Source: Candidatus Saccharimonadota bacterium
Lineage (GTDB): Bacteria; Pseudomonadota; Gammaproteobacteria; Enterobacterales; Enterobacteriaceae
Reading direction: 5' to 3'
DNA: 32,000 bases
Assembly: GCA_036689225.1 (NCBI GenBank)
Contig: CP144768.1
Span: 127,311-159,310 of the forward strand
Positions 554 through 23,929 of this stretch are shown here, one piece after another. Each line of letters opens with the position of its first letter. The stretch's first letter is position 1. The position numbers and the translations under genes were made by a program. The notes below the pieces were generated by a model. That model made no database searches, was not told where the DNA came from, and saw only the letters and a list, made by a program, of their open reading frames with translations.

Positions 554-1027
554 TTAAATCTTATATAAATAATTATAATGTGCATTAGCTAATGCTAATG
601 CATCAGTAATATTAAAATTATATATTCTATTTATATTAAATTTTTTACATATAAATTTACTAATATATTTCTTATTAACATTACCATTAAAAGTTATAGA
701 TTTTCTAATTTTTTTAATATTATATTCAAAAAAATTTATATTATTTAATAAAGCAATAGATATAACTATTCCAGACAATTTACTAAGTTTAATTAAAACA
801 TCATAATTTTTAAAATAAAAAAATTTTTCTATAACTAAATAATTAGGTTTATAATTTATACAAATTTTTAATATATTAATATACATATCATATAATCTAT
901 CATTAAAATTTATAAATTTACTATTAATACAACCACTATTAAAATATTTAAGTTTATTATTAAATACATCTAAAATACCATATCCAGTACAATATGTACC
1001 TAAATCAATACCTATAATTCTTTTCAC
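554..1027 (-). CDS. ruvC: Holliday junction resolvase RuvC (157 aa)
   Basis: The N-terminus MKRIIGIDLGTYCTGYGIL matches the RuvC catalytic N-terminal motif (IxGIDPGxxxTGYG). The length fits, and it sits beside aspS as in enterobacteria. Confidence 0.8.
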   Translation of the reverse strand: MKRIIGIDLGTYCTGYGILDVFNNKLKYFNSGCINSKFINFNDRLYDMYINILKICINYKPNYLVIEKFFYFKNYDVLIKLSKLSGIVISIALLNNINFFEYNIKKIRKSITFNGNVNKKYISKFICKKFNINRIYNFNITDALALANAHYNYLYKI

Positions 1028-1044
1028 AAATAAAATCCAAAATT

Positions 1045-2700
1045 TTAATCAGGTGAACCAGTTAATAAACAAGTACCAGAAGTAGTTTTAGGAAAAGCAA
1101 TAACATCTTTTATACTTTTAACATTAGCTAATAACATAATTAATCTATCTAAACCTAAAGCTATACCTAAATGAGGAGGAGCACCATATTTTAATGAATT
1201 TAAAAAAAAATTATATCTTTCTTTAATACCTAATATATTAAATATTTCCTTTTGTAAATCATAATTATGTATTCTTTGAGAACCACTACCTATTTCATAA
1301 CCATTAATAACTAAATCATAAGAATTAGCTAATAATAAATTATAATTATTTATAGATTTTAATTTAGATAAATTAATATTTAATGGCATAGTAAACGGAT
1401 GATGATAAGCATTAATTTTATTATATTTATCATAATAAAACATAGGAAAATTAATTATTCAAATAGGATAAAATCCTTTTTTAAATAAATTAAAAAAATT
1501 ACAATAATAATTTCTTATTTCAACTAAAAAATTTAAATCTAAATAATTATCTAATAAAATTATAGAAATAAAAGTATTTACAGATACATTTAAATATAAA
1601 AGAATATTATTAATACAAAATTTATCAATATTTAATTTACCAAAAATTTTATATTTAAAATTTTTATTTTTTATATTATAAACATAAATACAAAAATATT
1701 TATTTATTTTTTTTATTTTAAAAAAATTAAATATTAAATCTATTTTTGATATATCAAAAACATTATTAATTATAATAGTTTTTATATTATCTATTTTATA
1801 ATTTTTAAATAAATTTTTTAATAAAAACAAAGAAAAATTAAAATTATATTCTACAATATTACGTAAATCAGGTTTATCAGTACCATAAATATTAATTGAA
1901 TCTATATAATTTATTTTTTTAAAAAAACTATTAATTTTATAATTTTTAAATTTTAATCATATATTAAAAATTAATTTATTTATTAAATTATATAAAACAT
2001 CAAAATCAACAAAAGACATTTCTATATCTAATTGAGTAAACTCAGGTTGTCTATCAGAACGTAAATTTTCATCTCTAAAACATTTAACAATTTGATAATA
2101 TTTATTAATACCAGAAATCATTAATAATTGTTTAAATATTTGAGGAGATTGAGGTAAAGAATAAAATTTATCATTATATATTCTACTAATAATTTTATAA
2201 CTATTTGCTCCTTCAGGAAAAGATTTAGATAAAAAAGGAGTTTCTATTTCAATAAAATTATTTTTAATAAAATAACTATTAATAAAAAATTTAATATTAG
2301 ATTTTAATTTTATTATTTTTAACATATCATTTCTTCTTAAATCTAAATAACGATATTTTAATCTAATATTTTCAGAATTATTATTATTATATATATCCAA
2401 AGGTAAAGATATAGAATAATTTAATATATTTATATTATAAGCTAAAACTTCAAAATCATTAGAATTAATTTTATTTTTTAAAATACCAAATACCTGTATA
2501 CAAGACTCATTATTTAATAACAAAATATCATTTCATAAATGAGTTATATTTTTTTTACATAATACTTGTATATTTCCACTTATATCTCTAAAATTTATAA
2601 ATATTATATTTTTAAATATCCTTATATTATTAACTCATCCAAATAAATTAACTTCTTTATTAATATCTTTATTTTCCAAAAAATTACAATAAATATTCAT
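1045..2700 (-). CDS. aspS: Aspartyl-tRNA synthetase (551 aa), spanning several in-frame TGA(Trp) codons
   Basis: Track ORFs 1045-1443, 1459-1830 and 1957-2523 share one frame, and I checked the gaps for TAA/TAG and found none. The N-terminus MNIYCNFL...LFGWVNNIRIF...FINFRDISGNIQV resembles E. coli MRTEYCGQL..LCGWVNRRRDLG..FIDMRDREGIVQV. Also present are YGTDKPDLRN, FRDENLRSDRQPEFTQLD (class II motif 2) and GLDRLIMLL (motif 3). Confidence 0.95.
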
Positions 2701-2810
2701 AATAAATACTCAACTATAAATTATAAAAAATAAAAAATAAATATAATTAATTATAATAAATATTTTATAAATAATAAATAATTAAAAATAAAATAATAAT
2801 ATAATAAAAT

Positions 2811-4523
2811 ATGAATATAAAAAAAATAATAATTAAAGAAATAGATAGTATTTTAAAAAAAAATAATATAATAAAAAAATATAATTATAATATAAAAAAT
2901 AATTATAAATTTAGTGATTATCAAATATATGGAATTATAAATATATCAAATAAAGAAAATATAAATATAAATAAAATAATTAATATATTTAAAAAAAAAA
3001 TAAAAAAATATAAAATATTTAAAAAAATAAATATTATAAAACCAGGAATAATAAATATATTTTTAAAAAAAAAAGAAATAGAAAAAATAATAAATAAAAA
3101 ATCAAAAATTAAAAATTTTGGAATAAAAAAAACAAAAAAAAAAAAAATAATTATAGATTATTCATCACCTAATATATCAAAAGAAATGCATATAGGTCAT
3201 TTAAGATCAACAATATTAGGTGATTGTATATCAAATATATCATCATTTTTAGGAAATAAAATTATAAAAATTAATCATATAGGTGATTGAGGAACTAATT
3301 TTGGAATGATAATAACTTTTATTAAAGAAAATAAAATAAAATTAAAAAATATTAATATAAAAAAAATAGAAAAAATATATAAAAAATCACAAAATATTTT
3401 TATTAAAAATAAAAAATTTGCAAAAAAATGTAGATTAAATACATTAAAATTACAAAAAAAAAATAAATATAATATTAATATATGAAAAAAAATTACCAAT
3501 ATAAGTATATTGGAAAATCAAAAAATATATAAAAAATTAAATGTAAAATTAAATAAAAAAAATATATTTGGAGAAAGTTATTATAAAAATAAAATAAAAT
3601 ATATAATAAAAGATTTAATAAAAAAAAAAATAGCAATAAAAGAAAAAAAAACAATTATTATAAAAAATAAAAAAAATAAATATAATATAATAATTCAAAA
3701 AAAAGATGGAGCATATTTATATAGTACTATAGATATAGCATGTATAAAATATAGATATGAAAAATATAAAATTAATAAAATAATATATTTAACAGATATT
3801 AGACAAAAAGAATATATGGAAAATATATTTTCAATAGTTAAAAAAGCAAAATATTTACCAAAAAAAATTAAATTAATACATTATTTTTTTGGAAATATAT
3901 TAAATAAAAATGGTAAACCATTTAAAACAAGAAAAGGAAATAATATAAAATTAAAAAAAATAATTAAAAAAACTATAAAATATACAAAAAATAAAATTAT
4001 TAAAAAATATAAAAATAAAAAAATTAATAAACAAAAAATATATAGAATATCAAAAAAAATAGCTATAGGAGCTATAAAATATATGGATTTATCAAAAAAA
4101 AGAACAAAAAATTATATATTTAATTTAAAAAAAATATTATTATTTAATAATAACACTGGACCATATATACAATATGCTTATGCAAGAATAATATCATTAT
4201 TAAAAAAAAATAATACTAATATAACTAAATGTATAAAAAACAAATTTTATATTAAAAATAATTTAGAATTTAAAATATCAAAAAAAATATTAAATTTTGA
4301 AGAAATAATTAAAAAATCATATAAATATGGAATTACACATGAAATATGTAAATATTTATATAATTTAACAATATATTTTTCTAAATTATATGAATCAGAA
4401 AATATAAAAAATATAAAAAATATAAAAAAAAAAAATAGTAGATTAAAATTAATATCAATTATAGGAAAAATAATTAAAATATGTTTAAATATTTTAGGAA
4501 TACCTATATTAAAAAAAATATAA
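2811..4523 (+). CDS. argS: Arginyl-tRNA synthetase (570 aa), with in-frame TGA at 3288 and 3483
   Basis: [21 protein letters not shown] (HIGH motif) is followed by HIGD-TGA-GTNFGM, matching the conserved HxGDWGxQFGM. The C-terminal part [11 protein letters not shown] is typical. Fragments 2811-3290 and 3510-4523 are in the same frame. Confidence 0.95.
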
Positions 4524-4527
4524 TTAA

Positions 4528-5370
4528 TTATTTAATTTTTTGTCCAATAGTAAAACGAAATTTATTATTATAATCTTTATAAGAATAAATATTATAATAA
4601 CCTTTAAAATTAAAAAAAAAATTAATTACATCAATTTGAGTAAAACAATGTTCAATAATTAATCATCCATAATTATATAAATAATCATAAGAATTTAATA
4701 TTATTAATATAATATCTTTAATACCATTATTATTAGAAAATAAACTAATATAAGATTCAAATTTAATATCATTATTAAATTTAAAAAAATATTTATTAAT
4801 ATATGGAGGATTACTAATAATAATATCAAATAGTATTTTTTTTTTTTTAAAATAAGAAAATCAATTACTTTTAATAAAAAAAACATTATTAACATTTAAT
4901 TTTAAAGAATTATATTTAGATAAATTAATACATAATTCATTAATATCAATTCCAAAAACATAAGTTTTTGGACAAAATTTAGCTATAGAAATAGCAATAA
5001 CTCCTGATCCTGTACCTAAATCAAGTATTTTTTTAAAATTATTAATTTTAATTAAATAAATAACATATTCAACCATTAATTCAGTATCTTGCCTAGGTAT
5101 AAAAACATCAAAATATACTTTATATTCTAAAGATAAAAAATAACATTTATTTATTATATAATTAATAGGATATCCTTTTAATCTTTTAATAAATAAAAAA
5201 TTTAAAAATGATAATTCTAAATAATTTAATTTATAAAATTTATTATTTAAAATAATTCATATTATATTTTTATTTAATACATATTTTAATAATAATAAAC
5301 AATCTTCATATATATAATTATTATATATATAATATAATTTTATATTATCTAATCATTTATAAATATACAT
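4528..5370 (-). CDS. prmC: Release-factor glutamine methyltransferase PrmC/HemK (280 aa)
   Basis: Motifs seen are FIPRQDTELMVEY, LDLGTGSGVIAISIA (SAM-binding) and FDIIISNPPYI (NPPY). In-frame TGA codons lie at 4633, 4861, 5257 and 5353. The start lies 2 nt after the prfA stop, as in the enterobacterial prfA-prmC operon. Confidence 0.9.
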
Positions 5371-5372
5371 AT

Positions 5373-6434
5373 TTAATTTTTATAATATTTTTTAATTAAA
5401 GGATTTATTAATAAATTTAAATTTCCATTTAATATATCATTTAAAGAATATAAAGTTAAATTTATACGATGATCAGTAACCCTATTTTGTATAAAATTAT
5501 AAGTACGATTTCTATCACATCTTAAACCAGTTCCTAATAATTTTTTTTTATTATTATATTCTTTTTTATGCCTTTTATTTAATTCTAAATTATGAATTCT
5601 AGCTTTTAAAACTTCTAAAGCTCTAGATTTATTTTTATGTTGAGATCTTTCTTGTTGACATTCAACAACAATACCACTAGGTAAATGAGTTATTCTAACA
5701 GCTGAATCAGTAGTATTTACATGTTGACCACCAGCACCAGATGATCTAAAAGTATCTATTTTAATATCTTCATTACTAATTACAGGTAAATCTTTATAAG
5801 GTATATCTGGTATAACAGCTACAATACAAGTAGAAGTATGAATACGACCTTGAGATTCAGTTTCAGGAATTCTTTGAACTCTATGACCACCTGATTCAAA
5901 TTTTAAATTACCATAAACATTTTTACCTATTATTTTAAATAATATTTCTTTATAGCCATTTGTAGAATTACCTTGAATATTTATTAATTTTATCTTTCAT
6001 TTCATTATTTCTATATATTTTAAATACATCTTAAATAAATCTAACGTAAATAATGAAGCTTCATTACCACCAGTACCTGAATGAATTTCTAAATAAACAT
6101 TTAATATATCTTTTTTATCTTTTTTAAATATTAAAAAATATTTATTTAATTTATTTAAATAATAATTAACTAAATTATTTAATTTATTTATTTCATCTTT
6201 AACTAAAATAGATAATTCTTTATTATTTATCAATAATTTTACATCTTTTAATTCATTTGAATATTTAACTCAATTATTAAAATAATTTTTAATTTTACAT
6301 AATTTTTTATATTCATATATTAAATATAAATTTTTTTTACTATTATAAATAAAATTATTATTATTTAATAATTTATCAATTTCTTTAATTCTCTTATTAA
6401 TATGTAAAATATCAAAATTTTTTTTTTCAATCAT
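5373..6434 (-). CDS. prfA: Peptide chain release factor 1 (353 aa)
   Basis: [11 protein letters not shown] (GGQ) and [13 protein letters not shown] (an RF1-type PxT tripeptide, not the RF2 SPF) are present. [12 protein letters not shown] is also seen. An in-frame TGA occurs at 5997. Confidence 0.95.
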
Positions 6435-9563: not shown

Positions 9564-9708
9564 ATTAAAATTTTTAATATTATTAAAATAATATAAAACT
9601 AATATATTATTATATAAATATATATAATATATGTTAATTATAATAATATTTTTAAATATTAAAAAATACATTATAAAATAATGTATTAAAAAATAAAAAT
9701 AATAACTA

Positions 9709-9746
<38 letters not shown>

Positions 9747-10170
9747 GATATATAAATTTTAAAAATTACTAAATTAATAATAAGAAAACAAAAAAAATAT
9801 AATTTTTTAAAATTTATTACTAATAAAAATACAAAAAATATAATAAAAAATATAAAAAATTAATTAAAAAATTAAATATAAATAAAATATTATTTTTTAA
9901 TAAATATATTAAAAAATAATCCTTTTAATATTATAAAAAAATTAATAAATAATATAAAAAATATTAAATATAATATTATATAAAAAATAAATATTCCAAT
10001 ATTATTAAAAATATTAATATCTAGAAAAAAAATATTTTACAATTAATTAATATTGTTATATTAATTTAAAAAAATAGTATAAATTATATAAATAAAAAAG
10101 ATAATATAAAAATTAGTAAAAATAAAAAATATAAAAAATATTAAAAATAAAAAAAAAATATATTAAAATT

Positions 10171-10539
10171 ATGTTAATAAAAATCAATAATATATTAATT
10201 TATGAAAAAATTACTACAAGATGAAATAAAAAACTTAAAATATTTAAAATAATAATAATAAATAATATAATATTAAAAGATAAAACAAAAATAAAATTAT
10301 TAAAACAAGTTTTACCATTAAATATAACATCATATATAATAAATATAAATAAATTTATAAAAATATATAAAAATATAAAATATTTAAATAAAAAAATATC
10401 ATTATTATTTATAAATTCTATAAATAGAATTAAAATCGTAAAAAAAAATATAAATATAAAATCTATTAATATAAATAATATATTTTTTAAAAAAAATACA
10501 AATAACTGATTCTATATAAATAAAATAAAAAAAATATAA
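10171..10539 (+). CDS. Hypothetical protein, 122 codons, visible only under translation table 4 (in-frame TGA at 10222 and 10507)
   Basis: I read it codon by codon as ATG at 10171, no TAA or TAG until 10537, and TAA at 10132 upstream. The product is MLIKINNILIYEKITTRWNKKLKIFKIIIINNIILKDKTKIKLLKQVLPLNITSYIINI...NNWFYINKIKKI. A stop-free run this long is very unlikely by chance in sequence this A-rich. I could not assign a family. Confidence 0.4.
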
Positions 10540-10841
10540 ATTCATTTTATTAATTATATAAAATATATATATAATTAAAAATTCGTAAAATATCAAATAA
10601 TAAAAAAATAGATTTAATAAAAATATTAAATAAAAAAAAAGATTTTATATTTATTTAAAAAAAAACAAAATATATAAATAATATTAATAAAAATAATATT
10701 AATATTTTTAATAAATTATTTAATAAATATAAAATCAATATTAAATCAATTCCAACTATATTATTTATTAATTTATTACACATTAATAAAATTAATATTA
10801 AATAATATAAAAATAGATATTAAAATAAATAATATTCTTAA

Positions 10842-11294
10842 AATAATATTATTAATATAAATAAATATAGAAACTTCTATTTTTCCATATATAACTTTAA
10901 CTTTAATAATATCTACTATAAAATAATCAATAAAATTAAGTATAACTTCATTAATTCTATTATCAGTTATAATAAAAAAATATTAACAATAATTATAAAA
11001 AATATAACTATAGTTTTTTAATATTTTTCTAATAAAATAATAAAAAATTAAAATTTATCTTATATTTCTTATATTTATATTATTATTTTACTATTACAAA
11101 AAATAAAAATTATTTTACTATTATTATTAATAAATACAACAATAAATACAAAATTAATTAAATATATATTAAATTTAATAATATTAATAATTATAGAAAA
11201 ATTAAATATAATAGAAAAAATAATAATAGTAGTAAAATATACAATAATAATTAATATGATAATAACAAAATTTTTAATACCATTTTTAATTTAA
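10842..11294 (+). pseudogene. Possible eroded gene remnant, a 150-codon frame interrupted only by TAA at 11019 and 11049
   Basis: Within this one frame (codon starts at multiples of 3), 10842-11018 is open for 59 codons and 11052-11291 for 80 codons. The second stretch reads NLSYISYIYIIILLLQKIKIILLLLLINTTINTKLIKYILNLIILIIIEKLNIIEKIIIVVKYTIIINMIITKFLIPFLI and is hydrophobic. Identity is unknown. Confidence 0.25.
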
Positions 11295-12345
11295 GATTTA
11301 TTATATTAAAATTTATAAAATTTAATTTATTATCTTTAAATATATTAAGAATTATATTAACAACTTTATATATATAATTATTACCAAAATATTACAATAT
11401 AATAAATAATAACAAAAATAAAAAAATAACAAAATATAACGAATTAAATTAAAAATATAAAGTATAAATATGAATAATAAAAAATTAATCACAATAATAT
11501 AATAAAAATATTTATAAAAAGTATATCTTTACAAAAAATCATAAAATTTTGAAAAAATACAAATATTAAGTTTTTATTATTATATAATAACAATAATAAA
11601 TAAATTATATAATAACAATATAAAAAAAACTATTAAAAAAAATTTAGAATTTTTTAATACTAAATCATATATAATTATATAAATATTAAATATAATAATT
11701 ACTATATAAGAAAAAAAAGCTAATAGAATTAAAATAAATAAAAATATAATTAATAATATTAAAATAAAATTAATAAATTTATTAATAGAAATAAAAAATT
11801 CTATATTTTGAGGTACAATAAGATTAATATTATTATTATTAAAAATTTAATTTAAGTATATTAGAAAATATAATAAATTCTCTATTATTTTTTATATTTT
11901 TTAATATAAAAAAATTATTAATATTATATTATGATATATATCATAGATATAAAAAAAGATTTAAAAAATAATTAAAAATATAAATAATAATATTTTACAA
12001 AAAATTACTGAAAGTTCATATATATTAAAATTATTTATAATAAATGTTTTAATAAATAAATGAACTAAAATAAATATACCTTTAATAATCAATTATTACC
12101 AAATATAATATTATTAATAATAATATTAATATATATACGATTATTAAAAAAAAATAAATCCTTTAATATTAATAATAATTATTTTTATATTTATAATAAA
12201 TAAATATTTTAATATAATTTCAAATTAAAATAATATAAATAATAAATTAATTATATTTTTAATATATATATATATATTAAAAGTATAATTTTTTTTTTTT
12301 TTACAAATAAAAATCAATTTTCAATAATATTAATTATAAAATTTA

Positions 12346-17935: not shown

Positions 17936-19231
<1,296 letters not shown>

Positions 19232-19435
19232 ATAATATACTCCATATAATAATTATATATATTTAATAATATTATTAAATATATTATTATAATAAATATT
19301 ATTTCAAAATATTATATCATATAATAATAAAATATTATAATTAACAAATAAACAAATATATATTACATAAAATAATTAAAATATATAAAATATAATATAT
19401 TATTTTATTATTTATAATATATAAATATTATAATA

Positions 19436-21421
19436 TTATTTATATATTTTTCTATTAAATTTATCATTTATACCAGATTTTCTATAAAAATAAGTATTTA
19501 TTTTATCTCTTCATTCACATGAATGAAGATATTGTTTTCTTAATCTTTTTTTGACATTATAAAATATATTTTTTTTTATATAAAATTTTAATTTATTTCA
19601 TAATTTAATTCATTTATAAACATTTTTTACACCTTCAAAATGAGTATTATATATATATTGAATTATAGAAATTTTATATTTTTTAATTATATATTTATAA
19701 GATAAATTATGAAAAAATAATAATAATTTCTTAGGACATCTATTTATATCACTAAATTTTTTAATATTTTCATCAAAATATTGTTTTATAAAATTAGAAC
19801 CATTAAAAGTTCTATTATATCCTAAACTATATCTATTAGAATAATGATATATACCTGAATCTAAATATTCATATCCATCTATATTTGGAACATAATTATT
19901 TTTTGGATCAACCATTCCATTTAAACCTAATGGAGAAGTATAATTTTCATAATTTTGTCAACTATTATACATTATTTTTCTAATTATATTTATAACTTTT
20001 TTATTTTTATTTATAGATAATATTATTCATTCTTTTAATAAATTATTTAAATTTTTATTTAAATTTCATAATATATTGCCATAACAAAATATATTAGATT
20101 GAGATAAATAATGTCCAGTTCAATTATAATTATTTCCTATATTAGATATAACAGAAACACCAAAATATTTACATTTTTTATGTAATTTTCCTGAAATTAA
20201 TTTTTTAATAGTACATTTTCTATTTTTATAATAATAAGTATTAAAATTAAATATATTTTTTCATTGCATAGGTAATCAACATAAATCTATTTGTTGTCCA
20301 GTAAATTCTTGATTAATTTGTAATTCTAATATTTGAGAAGTTTTATCCATAGAACCTAATAAAGGAGAAACAGGTTCTCTAATTTGAAAACCTATTGGAT
20401 CATTAATTTGTAATATAACATTATTTGGAAATAAACCATTTAATTTATTAAAATACTTATAATTATTTAATATTTTATCATTATTTTTATTTCTTCAATT
20501 TTGTTTTTTATATATATCACATTTTCATACTAAAATACCATTAAAATAATTTAAATTTTTAGCTATATATTTACAACCATCTATATGATTTCTATTATAA
20601 TATAAAGGTCCTTTATTATTTTTACAATCAGTCTTTACAAAAAAACCTCCAAAATTTGGCATATATGAATATATTTCTTCTATTTTTTTTTCTCATCAAT
20701 ATATAACATTATTATCTAATGGATCAAATGTATCTAATTTTCCTAATATTATAGGACTTTTATAATTAATAGATAAAAACATTTTTATATTATATTTATT
20801 TAATATATTATATATTTCATAAATTTGAATTAATCAATTTTTAGTAATTAAAAAAGTAGAAAATATATTAACATTAATATTATTTATACATATTGCATTT
20901 ATTCTAATACTACATAATAATCTACAATAATATCTTATTCTATAAAAATCAAAATTAATATTATTTTTTAAAAAAAAAATAGAATTACCAGAATATCCTT
21001 TTTCTATTGAACCATCTAAATTATCTAAATGTTGTACAATTCTTAATTTAACTAATGGTTTTTCATGTATAAATATATTATTTATATCAAAATTATTTAA
21101 TTGAATATTATTAAATAAATGATATAAAGAATATAAAAATCCTTTTATATTCTTAGAAAAAATAAAAATTTTATTTTTAATATTTTTTATTAAATATTCT
21201 TCATCATCAAAATTTTTATTATTAAGAAATATTAAACTTGATATTTTAATTTTATTTGTAAATACTACATAATTTTTATCTATAAAATATAATATCTCCT
21301 CTTTTAAAAAAAAATATTTTTTTTTTATATATATATATTTAAATATTTTTTTATATTTTTTTTTATTTAAAAAATTATCAATATTAACTAATCAACATTT
21401 CGAAAAATTTTCTTTTATCAT
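19436..21421 (-). CDS. aguA: Alpha-glucuronidase, glycoside hydrolase family 67 (661 aa), containing 15 in-frame TGA(Trp) codons
   Basis: Joined through TGA, the frame is open from the ATG at 21421-21419 to TAA at 19436. Recognisable GH67 blocks are [142 protein letters not shown]...[12 protein letters not shown] and [22 protein letters not shown]. No N-terminal signal peptide is seen. Confidence 0.85.
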
Positions 21422-21477
21422 TTTATTAAAATATTATTATTAATAATACATTTTTTAATTATATATTATAATAAAAT

Positions 21478-22287
21478 ATGGAAAAAAAAAAAATAAATAA
21501 AAATATTATTCCAAATATTAGAGGAATAAATATATATAATATATACCAAAATTTTTCTTTTATTAAAAAAATAAAGAAATATATAAAATATATAAATAAT
21601 ATTAAAATACTAATAAAATATAATAAAATAATAAATATAAAAAAATTTATAAATATAATAAAAATATGTAATAAAAAAAATATTAATTTAACTATAAATA
21701 TTAAATTATATAATTTTAAAAAAAAAAATAAAATTAAATATATAAAATATATAAAATATATTATTAATAATTTAAATATAAAAAAAATATTTATAAGTAT
21801 AAATTTACAATGTAAAAATATAAACGAATGATATCTCTTTTACAAAGATTTTATTTATATTTATAATTTAAAAAAAATAAATAATATAATTTTTATAAAT
21901 TATCCAAATAATTTTAAATATCCTAATTATTTAATTTTATATAAAATTAAAAAAATATTTAATATTTTCAAAAAAAATAATATTTTTTTATTAATATCTA
22001 TATATAATAAAATATATAGAAAAATAAAAAATTTAATACAATTTTTAAATTGTATAATAAATAAAAATATACCAATAGTTTTAAGTGAAATAAATTATAT
22101 TAATAATATAAAATTTTTATTAAATTTCTGTCAAAAAAAAAATATAAATTGATGAATAACACCTAAAAAATATAAAAATATTAATAAAAAAATAAATATA
22201 TCAAATATATCATCTATAATTTTTTGTAAAAATGGAATAAGACAAACATCAATAAAAAATCCTTACCCATATAATTATTATGGATAA
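21478..22287 (+). CDS. Divergent 269-aa protein, a putative clan GH-A (beta/alpha)8 glycoside hydrolase that is GH10 xylanase-like
   Basis: The frame is open under table 4, with TGA at 21829, 22150 and 22153. Its motif order resembles GH10. IRGINIYN sits near the N-terminus, CKNINEW parallels WDVxNE (acid/base), IFINYPNN parallels LFYNDYN, IPIVLSEINY parallels hhITELDh (nucleophile), and NINWWIT parallels the beta-8 TFWG. It is transcribed divergently from the GH67 gene. It is short for the family, and I could not place the conserved GxQxH His. Confidence 0.4.
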
Positions 22288-22295
22288 GGTTTTTT
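22254..22295. terminator. Symmetrical bidirectional intrinsic terminator between two convergent enzyme genes
   Basis: The structure is aaaaaat-CCTTACCCATA-taattat-TATGGATAAGG-tttttt. The stem is 11 bp with one mismatch and is unusually G+C-rich for this sequence. It is flanked by A6 upstream and T6 downstream, so it reads as hairpin plus U-tract on both strands. It overlaps the last codons of the plus-strand gene and lies 28 nt beyond the polygalacturonase stop. Confidence 0.65.
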
Positions 22296-22322
22296 ATAAT
22301 ATTACTCACTTTATTTAATCTT

Positions 22323-23570
22323 TTAGTTTAATTTTCTTGTAGGACAAATATTTCCATTAGCATTTTCATTTAAAATACCTTTAGCTGTAACATTAACCAT
22401 TTTTATTACAGAACCTTTTTTAATATTTACATTTGAAAATATAACTTCAATATTATTTCCTTTTATACCATTAAAAATAAAATTACCAGGTGTTAATACT
22501 TTTACTGAATCAAAATTTATATTTTTAAATTTAGGTATTTTATTTCCTTTAGCATTTTTATTATAAAACATATCTAAATATATAGGATTTTTAACATCTT
22601 TTATACATATATTTTTATATGTAATAAAACTTACTAAACCACCTCTAGAAATATCACTTTTAATACGTAAACCACTAGTTGTTCCATCCATAGATAAACC
22701 ATCTACTAAAATATCATTAACATTACCTAATGTTTCACTACCTATTGACATTCCATGACCTTTACCAAAATTATTATTTACAATAGATATATGAGATGTA
22801 GGACCATGAGAAGCTTTTATAGCTATATTATCATCTCCTGTACTAATATATGAATGTGCTATAGTAATATTACTTGATGATCCTGGATCTATACCATCAG
22901 TATTACGAGCATCAGCAGGAGTATTTATATTAACTCCTCAAACTGTAAGTCCATCCAAATTATTTGTAGAAACATGAAAATTAGGTGAATTTTTTATAGA
23001 TATTTTATAAAAAGTAAAATTTTTTGAATTCTTTATTACAATAAGTCTAGGTACATTTTGTGACTGATTTTTTTTTTGTGCTTCACTAGCTAAATTTCAC
23101 CATGTTTTTGTACTTCCTTTCATAACAGAATTACCTTGACCATCAATAATTCCTTCTCCATATATACCACTATTTATAGAATTATTAACTGTTATAAAAG
23201 GAATACATGATTTACCTATATTATCTAATTTACCACATTTGTTACCTCCATTATCATATAATAATGGATCAGGTATTGCAGATAATATAGTACCCTTATC
23301 TATTAATATTCCTCCATTAGAAGGTATATTTAATGGACCTGAATAAAAATGAAAATTTTTATTATCAGTAGATTTTAATTCTACTACCTTATTTTGTTTA
23401 GCACAATTATTTATTGCTTTTTGAATTACACTAGTATTATTTTTATTATTAGCTTTTAATACAATACAACTTGAAGGATTTACAGGTTCTTTAATATTAC
23501 GTGTATCTCCAGCTATAGCTGTATTTATAGCTAAAATACTTATTAAAATTAAATATATACTATTTTTCAT
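22323..23570 (-). CDS. pehA: Endo-polygalacturonase, glycoside hydrolase family 28 (415 aa), with an N-terminal Sec signal peptide
   Basis: Fragments 22323-22751 and 23097-23570 are in one frame. I translated the gap as ...TWWNLASEAQKK...PRLIVIKNSKNFTFYKISIKNSPNFHVST...ARNTDGIDPGSSSNITIAHSYISTGDDNIAIKA...NNNFGKGHGMSIGSE...GLRIKSD. All four GH28 signature motifs (NTD, DD, GHG, RIK) are intact, and the protein is colinear with Pectobacterium PehA. The signal peptide is MKNSIYLILISILAINTAIA/GD. An AGGA Shine-Dalgarno lies 5 nt upstream of the ATG. Confidence 0.92.
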
Positions 23571-23849
23571 ATATATCCTATATAAATTTATTTAATAAAG
23601 TAAGTAATAATCATAAATATTTTAATATTTAGATTATATTATTATAACATAAAAAAATATTATAAAATATTTTTAAAAAAAAAATAAATTTAATATAAAA
23701 AATTATATTAAATAACAAAATATATATTATAAAAATTTTAATAAATAAATTATATTAAAATAGAAAATAAAATTAATAATTATAAAATTTTTTAATATAA
23801 ATATATAAATTTATTTTTTTATATAAATATATGATATAATAAATAAATT

Positions 23850-23921
<72 letters not shown>

Positions 23922-23929
23922 TTTATAAA

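Follow-up and report, generated by a model that had tools for sequence, protein, structure and literature searches.

Why does a stretch of chromosome whose other assignable genes serve housekeeping functions carry three consecutive genes for the breakdown of plant cell walls, and do all three still act as enzymes? We studied this locus, which lies between eno and the initiator tRNA gene, in a window of 32,000 nt of contig CP144768.1 (GC content 5–21% per 1-kb window). The window is DNA of Candidatus Stammera capleta itself, from the strain of the tortoise beetle Terpsis quadrimaculata; the first-pass annotation of the locus had cited Stammera as a precedent, and the outcome is stronger, with the organism itself at hand and not a parallel case. 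The genes encode a glycoside hydrolase family 67 (GH67) protein, an open reading frame (ORF) that we call ORF B, and a family 28 (GH28) pectinase. Our reading, which as a whole we consider likely, is that they came in with a Stammera plasmid, that GH28 works, and that GH67 and ORF B have moved away from their ancestral reactions.

When TGA is read as a stop (translation table 11), the region 19436–23570 splits into short fragments. Table 4 (TGA = Trp) gives three complete ORFs with the coordinates and orientations annotated at first pass, and the need for code 4 claimed there is borne out by TGA making up 20 of the 21 Trp codons across the GH67, ORF B and GH28 genes. The features of the locus are as follows:

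17936–19231, minus strand: eno (enolase), left chromosomal flank (Pfam Enolase_C 1.2e-119, Enolase_N 4.5e-51)
19342–23792, no strand: plasmid-derived segment without repA (blastn to Stammera plasmids)
19436–21421, minus strand: GH67-family protein, 661 aa, remodelled active site (Pfam GH67M 7e-106, GH67C 3.8e-65)
20390–20392, minus strand: Gly344 codon GGT, at the position of AguA D364 / GlcA67A D365 (alignment)
20621–20623, minus strand: Lys267 codon AAA, at the position of AguA E285 / GlcA67A E292 (alignment)
21478–22287, plus strand: ORF B, 269 aa, degenerate homologue of GH5 subfamily 8 mannanases, TIM barrel (profile, hhalign, fold, synteny)
22261–22289, minus strand: terminator-like hairpin followed by a T-run (terminator scan)
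22323–23570, minus strand: predicted GH28 endo-polygalacturonase, 415 aa, all catalytic motifs (Pfam GH28 4.5e-58)
23508–23570, minus strand: Sec-type signal peptide of GH28, MKNSIYLILISILAINTAIAG (read from the sequence)
23849–23922, plus strand: tRNA-Met(CAT), right chromosomal flank (ARAGORN)

Origin of the enzyme island

A blastn search of PLSDB with positions 19300–23700 matched 47 plasmids of Candidatus Stammera capleta with sizes of 5.5–8 kb. Twelve of the 47 cover at least 80% of the query, and the best matches show 82–84% identity over 96–99% of it. Positions 23792–19342 align with 680–5223 of CP043986.1, the plasmid from Chelymorpha alternans, at 82.7% identity over 4576 columns. This plasmid, CP144816.1 (pStChg1) and CP144770.1 (pStSv1) use the same genetic code 4 and carry the same three genes as the window, with 82–84% nucleotide identity over ∼4.4 kb; the synteny comparison with Stammera proposed at first pass thus found the cargo in the same order and orientation. 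The names pStChg1 and pStSv1 match Chelymorpha gressoria and Stolas variability, which are listed together with Terpsis and C. alternans under Mesomphaliini (Table S2, bioRxiv 10.1101/2023.12.12.571295); plasmid hosts are assigned throughout from such name abbreviations. The plasmids were fetched and read with our own table-4 ORF calls, and tblastn of ORF B against PLSDB gave 6 short fragments under its low-complexity filter. A scan of genome contigs with 8-mer peptide patterns of GH67 returned 27 matches with none confirmed, the patterns being too strict for orthologues of 60–77% identity.

The window copy differs from the Stammera plasmids in being chromosomal, at the eno/tRNA-fMet site, and in what it lacks. 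In each of the three closest plasmids GH28, GH67 and a homologue of ORF B are joined by a fourth gene, for a RepA of 260–270 aa that Pfam identified (RepA_C, 1.3e-27). No counterpart of RepA was found in the window by blastn against the plasmid, which gave low-complexity noise alone. The ∼1.2 kb of plasmid missing from the window comprises repA and its surroundings, and repA with the adjacent region is present in all 11 free plasmids examined.

The complementary view is provided by 15 other Stammera chromosomes, which were found by exact match to a 55-nt core of tRNA-fMet that is identical in all of them. The spacing from eno to tRNA-fMet is 110–330 bp in 15 of 15, and the flanking order pyk-tyrS-eno-tRNA-cvpA-truA-rplS-trmD-gyrB is common to the chromosomes wherever the 8-kb loci reach. 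Since the site is empty in these 15 chromosomes, the window holds a 4.45-kb insertion, and both of its junctions run on into conserved chromosomal sequence, including the conserved region upstream of tRNA-fMet. We read the block as a chromosomally integrated Stammera digestive plasmid lacking repA. A plasmid segment of ∼4.45 kb with GH67, ORF B and GH28 would have inserted between eno and tRNA-fMet, and repA with ∼1.2 kb around it would have been lost. The enzymes had been described at first pass as retained in the chromosome; plasmid homology and the empty site point instead to a secondary integration with loss of repA.

The same integration has been noted before: the preprint ‘Paleocene origin of a streamlined digestive symbiosis in leaf beetles’ gives the T. 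quadrimaculata symbiont as an example of plasmid integration and lists it with a genome of 268,407 bp and 0 plasmids (Table S2, bioRxiv 10.1101/2023.12.12.571295). Earlier publications have thus described GH28 and GH67 in Stammera, their location on a plasmid and the T. quadrimaculata integration; the island itself is textbook material for the symbiosis of Stammera with beetles and nothing in it is new in this respect. It could still be argued that an assembler joined plasmid and chromosome and that the plasmid is really free in the cell, as the genomes are manually curated short-read metagenome assemblies (bioRxiv 10.1101/2023.12.12.571295) and the DNA around the junctions is of low complexity and extremely rich in AT. 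However, the window lacks the very repA region that the 11 free plasmids have, both junctions are continuous with conserved chromosomal sequence, and the preprint authors themselves report integration and no plasmid for this strain; we regard such an artefact as very improbable. In a search for a target-site duplication or microhomology, each junction gave a weak alignment along the entire spacer of the empty site, as chance would produce in AT-rich DNA. Junction similarity in such DNA is uninformative about the mechanism of integration, a point that counts against the integration reading.

Two peculiarities of CP043986.1, at 5243–6209 and 498–680, were seen on the way. Its repA is split into two overlapping ORFs with an internal duplication of ∼45 residues, and downstream a G-rich motif (TTAGGGGGGTTGGTTTG...) is repeated in tandem, with three copies. 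We considered this repeat as a shared origin or iteron and rejected the idea, as neither the window nor any of eight further plasmids contains it. The split and the repeat could be an artefact of assembly or an origin structure peculiar to the strain.

Active sites of GH28 and GH67

Of the three gene products only GH28 looks catalytically complete. It scores 197 bits with Pfam PF00295 (cut-off 22.9) and 346 bits with the polygalacturonase of PDB entry 1BHE, across the whole mature protein; 1BHE is a bacterial GH28, PehA of Pectobacterium/Erwinia. The motifs NTD, GDD, GHG and RIK are all present (RNTDGIDP, TGDDNIAIK, GKGHGMSIGSE and GLRIKSD) and align to those of 1BHE, from which the window protein differs in its AT-biased composition and in nothing else that is functionally notable. 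The signal peptide is of the Sec type, and the 1BHE alignment begins right behind it, at residue 22 of the query and residue 2 of the chain. The ratio of non-synonymous to synonymous substitution rates (dN/dS), estimated by NG86, which is crude at 13% GC, is 0.15–0.28 for GH28, the lowest among the plasmid genes. GH28 is credible as an intact secreted endo-polygalacturonase and as the working enzyme of the island, in line with the annotation of this ORF as a secreted GH28; it would be exported via its Sec signal peptide and cleave homogalacturonan for the beetle, in keeping with the pectin breakdown already published for Stammera. No recognizable signal peptide was seen in GH67, in ORF B or in the intact GH5 protein P0012 of a hispine-beetle symbiont described below, and that of GH28 is clear.

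Past the GH28 stop codon, at a distance of 34 nt, there is a terminator-like hairpin whose 11-bp stem contains 4 GC pairs and which is followed by a T-run; 3 such sites occur in the region, compared with 0.1 expected from shuffles. The hairpin overlaps the last codons of ORF B, where it encodes an odd C-terminal extension, ‘PYPYNYYG’. A GH28 with 51% protein identity is also found on a tiny plasmid of a reed-beetle symbiont (Enterobacteriaceae endosymbiont of Macroplea mutica, NZ_CP046219.1, 6.3 kb), where the query matched one place. That symbiont is likewise reduced but belongs to a different lineage, and its plasmid is free.

GH67 presents a different picture. Its family membership, as annotated at first pass, is supported by Pfam (PF07488, 354 bits; PF07477, 220 bits), and it aligns end-to-end to AguA of Geobacillus stearothermophilus (PDB 1K9D) with 584 bits and with 45% identity in the MAFFT alignment. 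The N-terminal Pfam domain GH67N (PF03648) gave no match although ∼110 N-terminal residues are present; the enterobacterial GH67 proteins compared are likewise without a precomputed match. In AguA and in GlcA67A of Cellvibrio japonicus (PDB 1GQI), where the columns of E285 and D364 likewise hold Glu and Asp, we take E285/E292 to be the general acid and D364/D365 and E392/E393 to activate the nucleophilic water; the work on these residues is reportedly that of Nurizzo in 2002, Nagy in 2003 and Golan in 2004. The window protein has Lys267 in place of E285 and Gly344 in place of D364, and E392 is kept as Glu372.

We surveyed these positions in 120 homologues (96 non-Stammera proteins and 24 Stammera clusters), with AguA added. 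Glu, Asp and Glu occupy the three positions in 97 of 97 non-Stammera sequences, AguA included. Among the 24 Stammera clusters, position 285 is Lys in 11, deleted in 7, Glu in 5 and Asn in 1, and position 364 is Gly in 15, Asp in 7 and a gap in 2. The plasmid names of the five clusters that keep Glu match the hispine hosts Alurnus, Prosopodonta, Sceloenopla, Chelobasis and Arescus, and within Stammera all three catalytic residues are kept only on plasmids with hispine-matching names. The window protein retains 130 of 167 family-invariant columns (78%), compared with 84–93% in the Glu-keeping Stammera enzymes.

Further replacements in the window protein are W150L, R159K, R318K, R335K, K359N or a deletion at this site, H527N and W540S. 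Of the basic residues of GlcA67A that we assume bind the uronate carboxylate (K288, R325 and K360), the first is kept, the second, R318 in AguA, is Lys and the third, K359 there, is deleted or Asn; several of the losses presumably correspond to carboxylate- and methyl-binding residues of GlcA67A. Compared with AguA and GlcA67A, the window protein conserves E392, K281 and numerous structural motifs along with both Pfam domains, GH67M and GH67C, and lacks the catalytic acid, D364 and part of the binding residues. At the same time its dN/dS against plasmid orthologues is 0.33–0.37, within the range of 0.19–0.37 for the gene as a whole (one pair, L008–L009, has 0.53). The protein is probably not a canonical alpha-glucuronidase, yet it remains under purifying selection. 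It may be a pseudoenzyme without activity or an enzyme with a remodelled site.

On the latter view the tortoise-type GH67 would have kept activity, as a uronidase or other glycosidase with a remodelled center and an altered specificity or mechanism, and several observations speak for it. Its dN/dS range is comparable to that of RepA, and the family-invariant columns kept include E392 and the motifs REPVSP and QEYTGQQ. Gly364, Lys318 and Leu150 are common to and conserved in the tortoise-beetle lineages, and the GGT codon for Gly364 is kept in most of them despite AT pressure; transcription is up in feeding stages. However, the acid position is inconsistent (Lys, Asn or a 7-residue deletion), and no conserved alternative carboxylate is visible nearby in the alignment. 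The chain in PDB 1K9E and 1K9F is AguA with E285N as its single, engineered change, and this mutant and GlcA67A E292A are said to be essentially inactive. We consider a still-active glycosidase possible and rather unlikely.

ORF B and the GH5 mannanases

The middle ORF had been annotated as GH10-like. A Pfam search of ORF B and five homologues gave no family match even at E-values of 1–5, and GH10 (PF00331) was absent from the Pfam results, from the family profile search and from the top 50 Foldseek matches. A family check with hidden Markov models had been proposed at first pass for all three ORFs: it placed GH67 and GH28, left the middle ORF without a Pfam match and assigned it to GH5 by way of a profile. 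Clan GH-A holds for ORF B and GH10 does not, as its detectable relatives are GH5 subfamily 8 (GH5_8) mannanases alone.

ORF B has 10 homologues with 43–62% identity, which lie on contigs of 5.5–6.9 kb, the size of Stammera plasmids, except for the most distant, P0011 (2.3-kb contig). Its homology to GH5 is visible only in a profile search of 1.84 billion representative proteins, in hhalign and in a fold search. Beyond the family itself, the profile matched P0012 (E 3e-17), P0013, which is degenerate and resembles the family, and a further 12 proteins, and all nine matches scanned with Pfam (P0012 and P0014–P0021) are GH5 (PF00150). The hhalign comparison with a GH5_8 alignment gave 96.6% probability and an E-value of 4.9e-10 over 251 columns. 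The AlphaFold (AF2) model of ORF B is a beta/alpha-8 barrel (pLDDT 77, pTM 0.77) with the GH5_8 beta-mannanases of Thermobifida fusca and Streptomyces as top Foldseek matches in the PDB (E 6e-7), whereas the sequence profile searched against the PDB gave noise alone (E >0.2).

P0012, the GH5 of the Chelobasis symbiont, is a mannanase-type sequence with 252 bits to 1WKY and is 97% identical to a gene on CP144823.1 and CP144820.1. On these two plasmids the GH5 gene lies on the plus strand between GH67 and GH28, both on the minus strand; ORF B fills the corresponding slot in the same orientation, convergent with GH28. ORF B shares with P0012 the N-terminal motif ‘IIRGIN’ and the C-terminal motif ‘NGI(K/R)QTSI’, and with the mannanases of T. 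fusca (1BQC) and Bacillus sp. (1WKY) and the Chelobasis protein the TIM-barrel fold. In contrast to these enzymes it is 30 residues shorter, has ISIN-LQ for NIANEW and has no direct Pfam match to GH5. RepA was considered as an identity for ORF B and rejected, RepA being a separate fourth gene of the plasmids.

The acid/base Glu of NIANEW is replaced by Leu, Tyr, Ile or Phe or by a gap in every ORF B member, by MAFFT and hhalign alike. A ‘NINEW’ in ORF B, which was probably the basis of the earlier call of clan GH-A, aligns to the non-catalytic ‘NDDTW’ and not to the catalytic NE motif. Other signature residues have changed as well (strand-2 Arg to Lys, strand-3 His to Lys, strand-6 His to Ser, strand-8 Trp lost), the strand-6 Tyr being kept in some members. 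The strand-7 nucleophile Glu is present in the window copy (LSEIN, E204) and is Lys, Asp or Asn in other members. We describe ORF B as a degenerate GH5_8 mannanase homologue whose acid/base Glu is gone; it would descend from a GH5_8 endo-mannanase that is still intact in hispine-beetle Stammera.

These results bear on the model put forward at first pass, in which a GH10-like xylanase and GH67 cooperate on glucuronoxylan alongside GH28. The model has the families of GH67 and GH28 right by Pfam, ORF B is indeed a clan GH-A TIM barrel, and the literature calls GH67 a hemicellulose-digesting factor. However, no search gave a GH10 signal, ORF B members all lack the acid/base Glu and do not conserve the nucleophile across the family, and GH67 is without its catalytic acid and one base. 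With no xylanase at the locus, the proposed synergy has no support, and we give the model hardly any chance.

The slot between GH28 and GH67 varies among Stammera plasmids. It holds a PL4 gene in pStAo1 and pStScsp1, an intact GH5 in pStChp1 and pStCha1, a shattered GH5 pseudogene in pStAsp1 and ORF B in tortoise-beetle strains, and is empty in pStPd1 and pStXa1; further cargo seen on the plasmids includes a CE8 pectinesterase, a xanthine/uracil-family permease and a major facilitator superfamily (MFS) transporter. GH5 has been described as ‘restricted to symbionts of hispines’ and reconstructed as one gain at an internal node (Table S3, bioRxiv 10.1101/2023.12.12.571295). A syntenic GH5 relic in tortoise-beetle Stammera would make GH5 older than a hispine-only gain.

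One might suppose that GH67 and ORF B are neutral, non-functional leftovers whose deletion is pending. Both have lost catalytic residues and each is missing from some Stammera plasmids; ORF B in addition has a GC content of 7.8% and, with 0.35–0.88, the highest dN/dS among the plasmid genes. The reading frame of ORF B, however, stays open where neutral drift should have closed it. The window copy contains no in-frame stop, compared with 40–44 in the other two forward frames, and eight copies with 7–9% GC contain none, compared with 28–52 per other forward frame. If all sites diverged like third codon positions, 10–29 in-frame stops would be expected between pairs of orthologues, and ORF B is intact in at least eight lineages. 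None of 2000 neutral simulations kept the frame open, so the probability of no stop is below 1 in 2000. The Arescus plasmid CP144851.1 provides a natural control: its abandoned GH5 has become a true pseudogene, broken up by many stops and by at least 3 frameshifts. As for GH67, dN/dS is well below 1 and the length is held at 645–670 aa in 19 tortoise-type clusters. We consider neutral leftovers improbable. The frame of ORF B is held open by selection, a constraint that is real but weak, and we regard ORF B as a remnant that has lost catalysis and retains some residual role.

The first-pass annotation had assumed strong selection at the level of the host on the island as a whole. By dN/dS this stands for GH28, where it is clear; selection is weaker on GH67 and weakest on ORF B. 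Pairs that include the integrated copy have higher dN/dS than pairs of free plasmids, with 0.26–0.28 versus 0.15–0.17 for GH28 and 0.33–0.37 versus 0.19–0.28 for GH67. Integration may have been followed by faster protein evolution, with single-copy dosage or relaxed selection as the cause; the difference may also be a lineage effect.

From the homology, the insertion site and the residue states observed we infer the following functions: GH67 and ORF B would no longer run the hydrolysis of glucuronoxylan and mannan in tortoise-beetle Stammera and would persist for some weaker benefit. Several points weigh against this. The literature treats Stammera GH67 as a functional, host-beneficial alpha-glucuronidase, a hemicellulose-digesting factor or a ‘xylanase’, and the gene is reported to be up-regulated in the foregut organs of C. 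alternans; in the literature searched we found no activity assay of a tortoise-beetle Stammera GH67. The predicted loss of activity in GH67 and ORF B is read from their residues, and the catalytic roles in GH67 are taken over from work on AguA and GlcA67A, with only invariance and the engineered PDB mutant as support here. Continued purifying selection, with the crude estimates given above, means that both proteins do something, and non-canonical catalysis by either is conceivable.

Genomic setting and consequences for the symbiosis

Outside the enzyme island all assignable genes in the window are housekeeping genes, as the first-pass annotation had put it. Pfam identified ruvC, aspS, argS, prmC, prfA, pth, lysS, ychF, pyk, tyrS, truA, trmD, dnaN and a short yidC; gyrA, gyrB, rplS and rpsP were identified by reading their sequences. 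The absence of dnaA, recF, rimM and most of yidC, also claimed there, agrees with the gene order in the window: at 25021–30283 rpsP adjoins trmD without rimM, dnaN adjoins gyrB without recF, yidC has ∼192 aa, and no ORF of the size of dnaA lies upstream of dnaN inside the window. Between ychF and gyrA (9564–12339) a stretch of ∼2.8 kb with 6.2% GC has no table-4 ORF of more than 134 codons; it may hold eroded gene remains or be a spacer unusually long for a 0.27-Mb genome. The T. quadrimaculata chromosome (268,407 bp) is ∼22–28 kb larger than those of the closest plasmid-bearing relatives (239,864–246,187 bp). As this excess is far larger than the 4.45-kb insert, the lineage keeps or has gained other DNA. 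A promoter scan of the region gave 74 sites with 74.4 expected, which is uninformative at this base composition.

Beyond the window, we see about an even chance that the same holds for all tortoise-beetle Stammera, including the C. alternans model: the ‘alpha-glucuronidase’ would not be a glucuronidase, ORF B would be a dead descendant of a GH5 mannanase, and selection would be keeping both, whether as pseudoenzymes or in a new enzymatic function. Neither the GH5 relic nor the remodelled site of GH67, across tortoise-beetle Stammera, appears to have been reported. If the reading is true, GH5 would be ancestral to the plasmid and not a secondary gain of hispine symbionts, contrary to Table S3 (bioRxiv 10.1101/2023.12.12.571295), and ORF B as a GH5 relic would alter the ancestral-state reconstruction of the symbiont enzyme repertoire.

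Recent experimental work sorts Stammera strains into two digestive configurations, polygalacturonase (PG) plus alpha-glucuronidase and PG plus rhamnogalacturonan (RG) lyase. If the GH67 of tortoise-beetle strains is without its catalytic acid, this contrast would need biochemical confirmation. Very small bacterial genomes normally shed useless DNA fast. The locus would be a rare case, in a bacterial genome that is among the smallest, of enzyme-derived ORFs that outlast the loss of their catalytic residues, and selection would then have kept GH67 and ORF B in a genome of 0.25 Mb over tens of millions of years.

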